A stretch of 7,050 nt of DNA from Escherichia coli. Lineage in GTDB: Bacteria; Pseudomonadota; Gammaproteobacteria; Enterobacterales; Enterobacteriaceae. The stretch's first letter is position 1. The number at the start of each line of letters is the position of its first letter. The translations under genes and the position numbers were made by a program. The DNA lies in the NCBI RefSeq assembly GCF_003334255.1, contig NZ_QOWU01000098.1; one strand, 5' to 3'. This document shows positions 392 to 1,605 of the stretch, one piece after another. The notes beneath the pieces were generated by a model that saw only the letters and a program-made list of their open reading frames with translations, searched no databases and had not been told where the DNA came from.

Positions 392-1605
392 ATGAAATTT
401 GAACGCCATCATGAAATATTGAAACGACTCAGTAAATTCGGTTCTGTAAAAGTATCCGATCTGTCCAATAGCCTCAATGTAACGAAAGAAACTATTCGTT
501 CAGATCTTAATGAACTTGCCAGGCTTGGCTATCTGACTCGATGTCATGGCGGTGCTTTTATCGTCCTAGACTCGCTTGATACTATTGCGAAAAATGAAAT
601 CGCTTATGCGCTTGAAAATTATGATACAGCCCAGGGAATAAAAAAAGGCCACTCAACTATGAAAAGTCAAGTATGCGTTATTGGTTCGTTTAATGTTGAT
701 ATCATCAGTTATTTGCCGAGGCTTCCCACTATCGGAGAATCGCTTCTGGCAAGTAATTTTATATTTTCACCGGGGGAAAAGGCTGTAACCAGGCGCTGGC
801 AGCAAGCTTTGCCGATACTGATGTTTATTTCATAACAAAAGTAGGTACAGATCACTTTAGTGATTATGCGATCAACTTTATGAATTCGTCTAAGATTTAT
901 AAAAGTATAATTTATCAAACGAAAGAAACGCAAACCGGAACTGCCACGATCCTTGTTAATGAAGGTACTGGCGATAATGTTATTGCGATCTATCCCGGTG
1001 CCAACATGACAATGTCGTCCGATGAAATAACTATTCAGAAAGAAGCGATTATTAATTCTGATGTCATACTTCTGCAGCTCGAAACAAATTATACCGCTCT
1101 GCAACAAGCGATCACATTGGCGCAAAAAAACAGTATCCCGGTCATTATTAACCCGGCACCCTATAATGATATCGTCAACGAACTTATTCAGGATGTTGAT
1201 TATATCACCCCCAATGAAACAGAAGCTGGTTTACTGTCCGGCATAGACGTACACGATCTTGAATCAGCTAAACGAGCTGCAGAAGCTATCCACAATAAAG
1301 GGGTAAAAAACACGGTTATCACGCTCGGTAGCAAGGGCTCGCTCGCATTTGATGGCAAAAAATTCATTCATTCGCCAGCGTTTCCAGCGGTCGTTAAAAA
1401 TACGGCAGGAGCCGGGGATGCGTTTAACGGCTCTCTGGCATCAGGACTTGCGAAAGGAAAATCACTGGAATCAGCACTGTGTTATGCCAGCGCCTTTGCA
1501 TCCCTAGCGGTGGAGACAAGCAATGCTTCCGACATGCCTGAACATGAATCTGTGATACATCGAATTCAGAGTATACATTATCAGCAAACTATTTTTACGC
1601 ATTAA
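392..1605 (+). pseudogene. DeoR-type HTH domain fused to a PfkB/ribokinase-family sugar kinase, disrupted by a -1 frameshift in a G5 run (772..776)
   Basis: N-terminus ERHHEILKRLSKFGSVKVSDLSNSLNVTKETIRSDLNELARLGYLTRCHGGA is a classic HTH_DeoR signature including the hGGA motif. From KSQVCVIGSFNVD...GESLLASNFIFSP the protein is ribokinase-like. The frame breaks at CCGGGGGAAAAGG: frame +2 (ORF 392..835) gives FSPGEKAVTRRW...*, while the frame of ORF 880..1605 gives GGKGCNQALAAS...VGTDHFSDY, restoring the ribokinase GGKGxNQA motif. The downstream part contains NPAPYNDIVNELIQDVDYITPNETEA and the PfkB signature NTAGAGDAFNGSLASG. A sixth G would restore a single ~404-aa ORF. Confidence 0.8.

Follow-up and report, generated by a model that had tools for sequence, protein, structure and literature searches.

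This study asks whether a DeoR-type helix-turn-helix (HTH) DNA-binding domain that is joined in frame to a PfkB-family sugar kinase is a genuine two-domain protein or a product of local gene decay. The gene in question lies at positions 392-1605 (+) of the window, a stretch of 7050 nucleotides (nt) of Escherichia coli contig NZ_QOWU01000098.1 (assembly GCF_003334255.1). Its orthologue in Salmonella is rikA (STM3547), and the G-run frameshift described below makes the window copy a pseudogene. The evidence makes it probable, at a moderate level of confidence, that the family to which the gene belongs is an ancient and genuine HTH-ribokinase that would act as a one-component enzyme-regulator of its own operon, of which the copy in the window is a pseudogenised member. 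The coordinates of all features are collected in Table 1.

Reading frame and alleles of the fused gene

The open reading frame (ORF) at 392-835 (+), which encodes 147 amino acids (aa), is the 5' portion of a longer gene. The G run at 772-776 is G5 in the window (CC-GGGGG-AAAAGG, 771-780), one nt fewer than the G6 of the intact E. coli allele on plasmid NZ_AP022088 (locus L100), where it encodes P-G-G-K-G. The ORF stops at 835 because of this 1-nt deletion. The kinase reading goes on in the +2 frame up to the stop at 1603-1605, and the feature is therefore 392-1605, with a product of 404 aa once the frame is repaired. The RefSeq label for this span is 'PfkB family carbohydrate kinase, frameshifted'. 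The repaired product was reported as 100% identical, as a rounded value, to the intact E. coli protein cluster P0001 (2277 member sequences), and two residue differences, G194D and S348A, were seen in the alignment with the intact protein. The locus was found in 1972 of 5426 complete E. coli genomes, and the exact G5 allele in 187 of the 1973 E. coli records having the locus. WP_085326192 is among the intact E. coli alleles.

The assignment as the rikA orthologue agrees with both the full-length similarity and the neighbourhood. The Salmonella orthologue showed 80-82% identity at 100% coverage, and the gene order GATase1_like, DMT_YdcZ and PTE is common to both species. RikA itself shares 80% identity across its 404 aa, the positions of Met90 and Asp343, and the four-gene cluster; the 404-aa Salmonella protein was taken as RikA or a near-identical allele because of its length, the Met90/Asp343 numbering and its neighbours. 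In contrast to RikA, the window copy has no intact reading frame (G5 in place of G6), and the transporter gene of its operon carries a stop.

A second homopolymer run, A7 at 640-646, lies within the linker between the two domains. In other E. coli lineages with A6 at this run, the gene is split into an 89-aa HTH protein (cluster P0298, 307 members) and a 315-aa kinase (cluster P0008, 825 members), with a stop/start overlap of ATGA, and comparable A-run frameshifts are present in Salmonella (P0310, P0311). The split alleles were exposed by a homologue search with the 89-residue N-terminus, which, using a word index, returned fragments of the same gene only. Programmed frameshifting or slippage at the A7 run was considered and dropped, because conservation of the run is limited to E. 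coli and Salmonella. Given this absence of conservation in other genera, the A7 run is probably a mutational hotspot.

An intact fused gene, together with the next gene, was observed on the conjugative IncFIB/IncI plasmid NZ_AP022088 (L100, 101-2087), and the cassette is therefore mobile between replicons.

Domain architecture and linker

Pfam analysis of the repaired protein identified HTH_DeoR (PF08220) at residues 5-56 (E 4.9e-15) and PfkB (PF00294) at residues 92-382 (E 1.2e-64). As both domains match their profiles strongly, the two-domain assignment is well beyond chance. The stretch FIVLDSLDTIAKNEIAYALENYDTAQGIKKGHST represents residues 56-89, and MKSQVCVIGSF comes next. No match to DeoRC (PF00455) was found by Pfam in the repaired protein, even at E<=10. 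An earlier sequence-only reading of the locus, which described an HTH_DeoR domain, a short linker and then a kinase beginning at MKSQVCVIGSF, with the usual DeoR C-terminal domain missing, was accurate. In the NCBIfam analysis, the HTH matched AgaR over residues 3-61, and the ribokinase equivalog TIGR02152 scored 284.2 bits, just below its cut-off of 299.65.

The protein thus has the HTH_DeoR domain of the DeoR/GlpR regulators and lacks their DeoRC domain, the remainder being PfkB. The PfkB fold was present with its GG, NxxE and GAGD motifs and the catalytic Asp, and the GGKG motif is disrupted in the window by the frameshift. The ROK family was absent among the Pfam matches, and the fold that follows the HTH is that of a ribokinase.

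An AlphaFold model (43 homologues, mean predicted local distance difference test score (pLDDT) of 88) was comprised of two folded domains and a disordered tether. The winged helix at residues 2-56 contains helices at 2-16, 21-28 and 32-44 and strands at 49-51 and 54-56. The linker was modelled as a low-confidence helix at 64-75 followed by disorder at 76-90, with a pLDDT below 50. Superposition of the kinase domain on that of E. coli RbsK gave TM-scores of 0.91-0.93 (0.93 over 305 columns for 1rkd) at 36% identity. No PDB chain spanning both domains was found, either by a sequence search with the N-terminus or by Foldseek against the PDB.

When the fused N-termini (n = 33) were compared with full-length DeoR/GlpR proteins (n = 27) using hhalign, residues 1-57 alone aligned, with a probability of 99.1%, and the alignment ended at HGGA. 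Some tblastn alignments to ordinary DeoR/GlpR regulators reach to about residue 85. The possibility that the linker is a DeoRC remnant was rejected, as tblastn pairs it with the inter-domain linker of DeoR at few identities and hhalign ends at residue 57. The suggestion that the linker faintly resembles the start of a DeoR C-terminal domain was therefore not upheld: Pfam gives no such match, the segment is the fastest-evolving of the protein, and its modelled structure is the low-confidence helix and disorder described above.

Conservation and distribution of the fused architecture

A set of 132 non-redundant fused members, of approximately 400 aa each, was assembled from Enterobacterales, Orbales, Vibrio and Aeromonas. 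Fused proteins of 397-412 aa with both PF08220 and PF00294 were present at 80-82% identity to the E. coli protein in Salmonella, at 62-66% in Klebsiella, Citrobacter, Budvicia, Providencia and Pectobacterium, and at 46-52% in Rahnella, Brenneria, Gilliamella, Orbus and others, with a family-wide range of 35-83%. An exhaustive search of 50%-identity representatives added approximately 22 more fused clusters, down to 35% identity, including Vibrio nigripulchritudo, Aeromonas jandaei, Izhakiella and Citrobacter braakii. Plain ribokinases (~300-320 aa) match residues 90-404 only.

The catalytic Asp (D343), K130, D103 and G340 are kept in 132/132 fused members, and N101, N133, E231, NxxE and GAGD are nearly invariant; the GGKG motif is conserved as well. 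The HTH residues R5, T34, R36, D38, G53 and G54 are kept in 131-132 of the 132. With a mean column conservation of 0.58 and 0.62, respectively, the HTH and the kinase are conserved to about the same degree, against 0.33 in the linker. The linker is the fastest-evolving segment, and the distance from the HGG motif to the LGSF motif varies from 37 to 66 residues.

The fused gene is the first in a co-directional cluster at every locus examined, and no second regulator gene was found inside any examined cluster headed by it. Six kinds of cluster were observed behind the fused genes. The first, with GATase1_like, DMT_YdcZ and PTE genes, is present in E. coli, Salmonella (adjoining ggt), Klebsiella, Budvicia, Providencia and Orbus, and the second, with DHDPS, DUF386 and MFS genes, in Rahnella. 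The third is comprised of a nucleoside hydrolase and a nucleoside transporter or permease (a Salmonella paralogue, Citrobacter and Aeromonas), the fourth of an ABC transporter and an ADP-ribosylglycohydrolase (S. bongori), the fifth of a TRAP transporter, a dehydrogenase, DHDPS and a second PfkB (Vibrio), and the sixth of GATase1_like, an alpha/beta hydrolase and an amino-acid permease (locus L101). Several of these clusters encode enzymes that would free ribose from a riboside, which suits a ribokinase. To judge by gene content, this pattern is what would be expected of a portable module of a regulator and a first enzyme.

This distribution bears directly on whether the fusion is a recent deletion artefact of a decaying island, in which a full-length deoR-type gene was truncated at its 3' end and became continuous with the adjacent kinase gene. 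The window does show decay, in the form of a frameshift, an internal stop and insertion sequence (IS) fragments, and Met90 resembles a former start codon. However, intact operons of Salmonella, Klebsiella, Budvicia, Providencia and Orbus, among others, have a fused gene of identical architecture and linker length, no homologous locus was seen to carry a separate full-length deoR gene, and neither Pfam nor hhalign detected a DeoRC remnant. Because the HTH_DeoR-PfkB architecture is widespread and conserved and heads intact operons, the fusion is not a local deletion artefact. A deletion of this kind is already refuted as a recent event and retains a negligible probability. On comparative grounds, the fusion is likely to be ancient.

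Of the two alternatives put forward in the sequence-only reading, the genuine two-domain protein has therefore stood, while a deletion-made fusion within this decaying window has not. The comparison of fused with separate genes, proposed there as the deciding one, came out in favour of a widespread, conserved fused architecture. The idea of a fusion survives as a likely ancient in-frame junction and fails as a product of the decay of the window: the same architecture heads intact operons in many genera, and the G-run frameshift is a separate event.

Kinase activity of the orthologue

STM3547 of S. Typhimurium was named RikA in June 2026 by McCormick, Jabbar and Escalante-Semerena (PMC13432705). 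RikA phosphorylates ribose, the D343A substitution abolishes its activity, ribose induces cooperative ATP binding, and chromosomal rikA alone sustains growth on ribose (PMC13432705). A DeoR DNA-binding domain was predicted by PROSITE at residues 2-57, and Escherichia was listed among the genera having the cluster (PMC13432705). For the proposed bifunctional repressor/kinase, the kinase half is thus supported by experiment on the Salmonella orthologue (PMC13432705), and the repressor half is what we infer from the comparisons presented here.

These results also bear on a ROK-like reading, in which the protein binds DNA and the kinase domain is a ligand sensor only, without important catalysis. 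In its favour, a few distant members have an altered NxxE or GAGD, and a second PfkB kinase, a plain one, is encoded in the Vibrio operon. In the RikA subfamily, however, all of the catalytic and ribose-binding residues are kept, and the orthologue, an active ribokinase, is sufficient on its own for growth on ribose (PMC13432705). The sensor-only reading is already contradicted for the RikA subfamily and, for the family as a whole, we regard it as highly improbable. In some lineages, such as Vibrio, the fused kinase domain may be mainly a sensor.

In the distant Vibrio nigripulchritudo member (L094, 6001-13051), GGKG is changed to GGKA and GAGD to GSGD, and the operon that it heads also encodes a separate plain PfkB kinase.

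Promoter and candidate operator

The upstream regions of nine loci, representing several operon types, aligned with a fixed geometry. The CRP-like core, which matches the consensus at 8 of 10 positions in the window, matches at 7-9 of 10 in the relatives. In 10 of 14 loci, the distance from the CRP-like centre to the start of a downstream TAnnnT hexamer is exactly 29.5 nt, with Klebsiella off by one. Class II CRP promoters have their CRP site at -41.5 and a -10 hexamer that occupies -12 to -7. On account of this exact spacing, the promoter of the fused gene is assigned, as judged from its sequence, to the class II CRP promoters. Only about 20 nt separate the inferred -10 hexamer from Met1, and transcription is predicted to start at about position 379, some 13 nt ahead of Met1. 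The motif ATG-N6-ATCAC was considered as a palindromic operator and rejected, as it fits the CRP consensus and lies exactly 29.5 nt upstream of TAnnnT.

Two direct repeats phased at 10 base pairs (bp) lie upstream of the CRP-like site. In the window, the repeat pattern was observed once against 0.01 matches expected, and among 100 loci compared (~80 of them plain-ribokinase loci) it was present only in nine with the fused gene. The negative set came from a scan of genome contigs with the N-terminal alignment, the patterns of which fell in the kinase: 78 of the 80 loci returned were plain ribokinases and two were fused, and the plain-ribokinase loci were used as the negative set for the repeat motif. 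The repeats occupy the same position in other genera, in a degenerate YTTYYG form in Rahnella, Acerihabitans and L101. The last of these loci served as a prospective test, in which the presence of the repeat element was predicted correctly; it encodes an ETIRxDL-type recognition helix and showed, besides the phased repeats, a CRP site matching at 9/10 and TACAAT at +29.5. The repeats are missing from members whose recognition helix has R or K at position 33 (Citrobacter, Vibrio). The phased repeat element recurs across operon types together with the fused gene, and the phased TTTTTGNTTT repeats are considered a candidate operator of the HTH domain.

In Providencia (L090, 5873-5919), two TTTTTGNTTTTTTTTG modules were observed 31 bp apart, about three helical turns, where the other genera have one copy.

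Proposed mechanism and the evidence against it

The family would have originated in a single ancient in-frame joining of an HTH-encoding segment to the start codon of a stand-alone ribokinase gene. The intact product consists of a DeoR-type winged helix, a flexible linker of approximately 33 residues and a catalytically competent ribokinase. RbsK dimerises through the ribokinase lid, and the full-length protein would dimerise in the same way. The dimer would set its two HTH domains on the phased repeats directly upstream of the CRP site, and the DNA-bound protein would repress, or anti-activate, its own four-gene operon. Binding of the sugar substrate, with or without the nucleotide or the product, would close the lid, and the changed geometry would free the DNA; the kinase domain would thereby stand in for the missing DeoRC effector domain. 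Substrate-induced closure of the lid is documented for RbsK, and the ribose-induced cooperativity of ATP binding (PMC13432705) implies it for RikA.

Several points weigh against this enzyme-regulator. The gene is broken in the window, hence nothing functional is present here now. From sequence comparison we infer that family members bind DNA and regulate, as well as which element is the operator, that the effect is repression and not activation, and what the effector is. The most strikingly invariant upstream motif, ATCAC, is by its fit a CRP half-site and not a specific operator. The T-rich repeats could be UP-like DNA for the C-terminal domain of the RNA polymerase alpha subunit, since they are located where this domain binds at class II promoters; the GC-richer repeats in L101 argue mildly against this. 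No solved structure that shows a PfkB ligand signal being passed to a tethered HTH was found in the PDB. Finally, the published work on RikA points to a shorter protein: a C-terminally His-tagged species of ~35 kDa was obtained from a construct with 278 bp of native upstream DNA, RikA(90-404) complements growth on ribose, and the authors concluded that RikA 'appears to begin' at Met90, a longer isoform not being excluded (PMC13432705). The N-terminal 89 residues were thus treated as probably absent from the protein (PMC13432705).

Translation from Met1 or Met90

The Shine-Dalgarno duplex energy for Met1 is -7 to -11 kcal/mol in 10 of 12 loci, with -9.2 kcal/mol in E. coli and -7.8 kcal/mol in Salmonella, against -3.2 and -3.4 kcal/mol, respectively, for Met90. 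Over the HTH codons, the comparison of E. coli with Salmonella gave a proportion of non-synonymous differences (pN) of 0.118 and of synonymous differences (pS) of 0.445, and a dN/dS of approximately 0.19; the pN was 0.106 for the kinase and 0.175 for the linker. No in-frame stop was found in any intact member, and the region from Met1 to Met90 is free of stops and frame changes at 35-80% identity. The strong, conserved Shine-Dalgarno sequence of Met1 and the purifying selection on the HTH codons argue, at the level of sequence comparison, that codons 1-89 are translated. The published start at Met90 is thus in apparent conflict with the evolutionary signal for a translated HTH.

If the true gene started at Met90, codons 1-89 would be a mis-annotated 5' extension outside the functional protein. 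The ~35-kDa product, the complementation by RikA(90-404) and a better alignment with the starts of RbsK and DeoK are consistent with this (PMC13432705). It is difficult to reconcile with an HTH_DeoR match at E 4.9e-15 whose signature residues are near-invariant in 132 proteins that have diverged to as little as 35% identity, with a pN far below pS over codons 1-57, with the Shine-Dalgarno sequence at Met1 and an inferred -10 hexamer so close upstream of it, and with a region that stays open between the two start codons in such diverged relatives. A start at Met90 only is accordingly considered very unlikely.

The position of Met90 has a history of its own. Met90 aligns with residue 1 of many stand-alone ribokinases, and Met is present at the junction in 84 of the 132 fused proteins, while 32 of the 132 have no Met near the junction. 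The purine-rich K/R-G codons ahead of it read AAGG or GAGG 7-10 nt upstream in most loci. We interpret Met90 and the preceding codons, from their sequence, as relics of the ancestral ribokinase gene, namely its start codon and its ribosome-binding site. This fossil start may still be used, and the ~35-kDa product could have arisen either by internal initiation or by cleavage in the disordered tether.

A gene with two products, in which the full-length HTH-kinase is the regulator and a kinase-only form from Met90 is the main enzyme, is a possibility, though a doubtful one; the short form may in addition titrate the regulator through single-HTH heterodimers. It would account for the ~35-kDa product from native signals in Salmonella (PMC13432705), for the retention of Met at the junction amid poorly conserved linker columns, for the AAGG/GAGG sequences upstream of it, and for the natural E. 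coli alleles that are split exactly there into the 89-aa HTH and the 315-aa kinase. However, the Shine-Dalgarno sequence of Met90 is weak in both species, about a quarter of the members lack a Met near the junction, and the conserved Met has possibly just been inherited. The ~35-kDa band was identified by tryptic mass spectrometry only, from 18-h cultures (PMC13432705); cleavage in the disordered linker explains it equally well.

Comparison with known systems

DeoR/GlpR family members typically sense sugar phosphates. The repressors DeoR, GlpR, AgaR and LacR have a homologous N-terminal HTH, and their DeoRC effector/oligomerisation domain is wholly replaced in the fused protein by the PfkB kinase. 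RbsK (PDB 1rkd, 1rk2, 1rka) has the same fold, with the ribose-binding and catalytic residues all common to both; unlike the fused protein, it is without a DNA-binding domain and is regulated by a separate LacI-type protein, RbsR. In the ROK repressors (NagC, Mlc, XylR), an HTH is fused to a sugar-kinase-type ligand-sensor domain. Their logic is the same as that of the fused protein, but the kinase fold is unrelated (ASKHA, not PfkB) and they are generally not active kinases. BirA, NadR and PutA join an N-terminal DNA-binding domain to a pathway enzyme, and the occupancy by substrate or product governs DNA binding. They differ in their DNA-binding folds, enzymes and pathways, and DNA binding is demonstrated there, whereas it is predicted for the fused protein. 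To our knowledge, no PfkB-family kinase is known as an enzyme-repressor.

E. coli YeiI is a PfkB kinase with an N-terminal extension that we take to be a winged helix; its NCBIfam profile, PRK09954, has approximately 50 extra N-terminal positions. The match of the repaired protein to PRK09954 begins at profile position 50, and the YeiI extension is not aligned with the HTH. The extension is without an assigned function (PMC9061257). FruK is a PfkB kinase that partners with the repressor Cra, as separate proteins (PMC11157272). Nothing was found in the literature on HTH-PfkB fusions beyond the RikA paper.

Features of the window and its neighbourhood

Table 1. Features of the fused gene, its promoter region and its operon in the window.
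Feature	Position	Strand	Remarks
Two 10-bp-phased direct repeats, TTTTTGCTTT/TTTTTGCTTT (candidate operator)	298..317	+	G303, G313; approximately -81 to -62 from the inferred transcription start
CRP-like site, cttTATGGtgattaTCACAtca	327..348	+	centre between 337 and 338; core 8/10 against TGTGA-N6-TCACA
Inferred -10 hexamer, TAACGT	367..372	+	T367 and A368 invariant in nine aligned upstream regions
Shine-Dalgarno sequence for Met1, TGAGGTG	381..387	+	anti-Shine-Dalgarno duplex -9.2 kcal/mol
HTH_DeoR winged-helix domain	392..562	+	codons 1-57; ends RCHGGA; Pfam, hhalign, AlphaFold, purifying selection
Inter-domain linker	563..658	+	codons 58-89; short helix 64-75, then disordered K/G-rich stretch; includes A7 run
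PfkB/ribokinase domain	659..1605	+	codons 90-404; broken by frameshift; stop 1603-1605
ATG of Met90	659..661	+	putative ancestral ribokinase start (fossil), possible internal start
G5 run	772..776	+	frame shifts inside GGKG motif; premature stop 833-835
Second operon gene, GATase1_like, STM3548 orthologue	1619..2377	+	PDB 2gk3, E 7e-145; STM1381 (3soz) also matched
Third operon gene, DMT_YdcZ-type transporter	2434..3399	+	in-frame TAG 3040-3042; RefSeq: internal stop
Fourth operon gene, phosphotriesterase-related amidohydrolase	3402..4436	+	Proteus mirabilis Pmi1525, PDB 3rhg/4qsf, E 4.7e-174

The window comes from an E. coli chromosomal island adjoining asnT and cobUST, and over 1451 nt it matches strains such as WP8-S17-ESBL-05 at 100% identity. 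Of the four operon genes, two are inactivated in this strain, the fused gene by its frameshift and the transporter gene by its stop. Pmi1525, an amidohydrolase-superfamily enzyme, is a very close relative of the product of the fourth gene. An Rfam scan of the window identified no RNA element, the leader included.

Mobile-element debris makes up both flanks. An IS66-family transposase fragment is present upstream, in the flank at 1-196. The downstream flank at 4477-6467 contains a gamma-glutamyltransferase fragment (-, frameshifted) and an ISL3-family transposase (-, internal stop); in Salmonella, an intact ggt lies directly behind the operon. An ORF at 6751-6987 (-) is part of a 'zinc-ribbon domain-containing protein' gene annotated in a related strain (L002) and is unrelated to the fusion.

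Significance

The gene itself is not new: it belongs to the recently named RikA family, as a pseudogenised copy in E. coli, and the practical conclusion for the window is modest, that of a decaying copy of a known gene. The family is widespread in enteric bacteria and heads several uncharacterised operons, including the STM3547-3550 cluster. The comparative evidence says that its DNA-binding part is made and under selection, and the sole experimental paper that it is probably not made; a promoter map with a CRP site, a -10 hexamer and a candidate operator is now supplied. The enzyme-repressors BirA, NadR and PutA are the textbook cases of direct metabolic feedback on transcription.

A more specific form of the enzyme-regulator, which we put forward as speculative and unlikely in all its parts together, is that the full-length protein acts as an anti-activator on the TTTTTGNTTT repeats and blocks activation by CRP and the alpha C-terminal domain until a ribose-like substrate closes the lid, while the Met90 isoform tunes the response through single-HTH heterodimers. 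If this were true, the published start reassignment would be half the story, and the catalytic one-component regulators, such as BirA and NadR, would include a PfkB kinase. The family would then represent a portable 'regulator plus first enzyme' module, used in at least six kinds of operon for ribosyl compounds.

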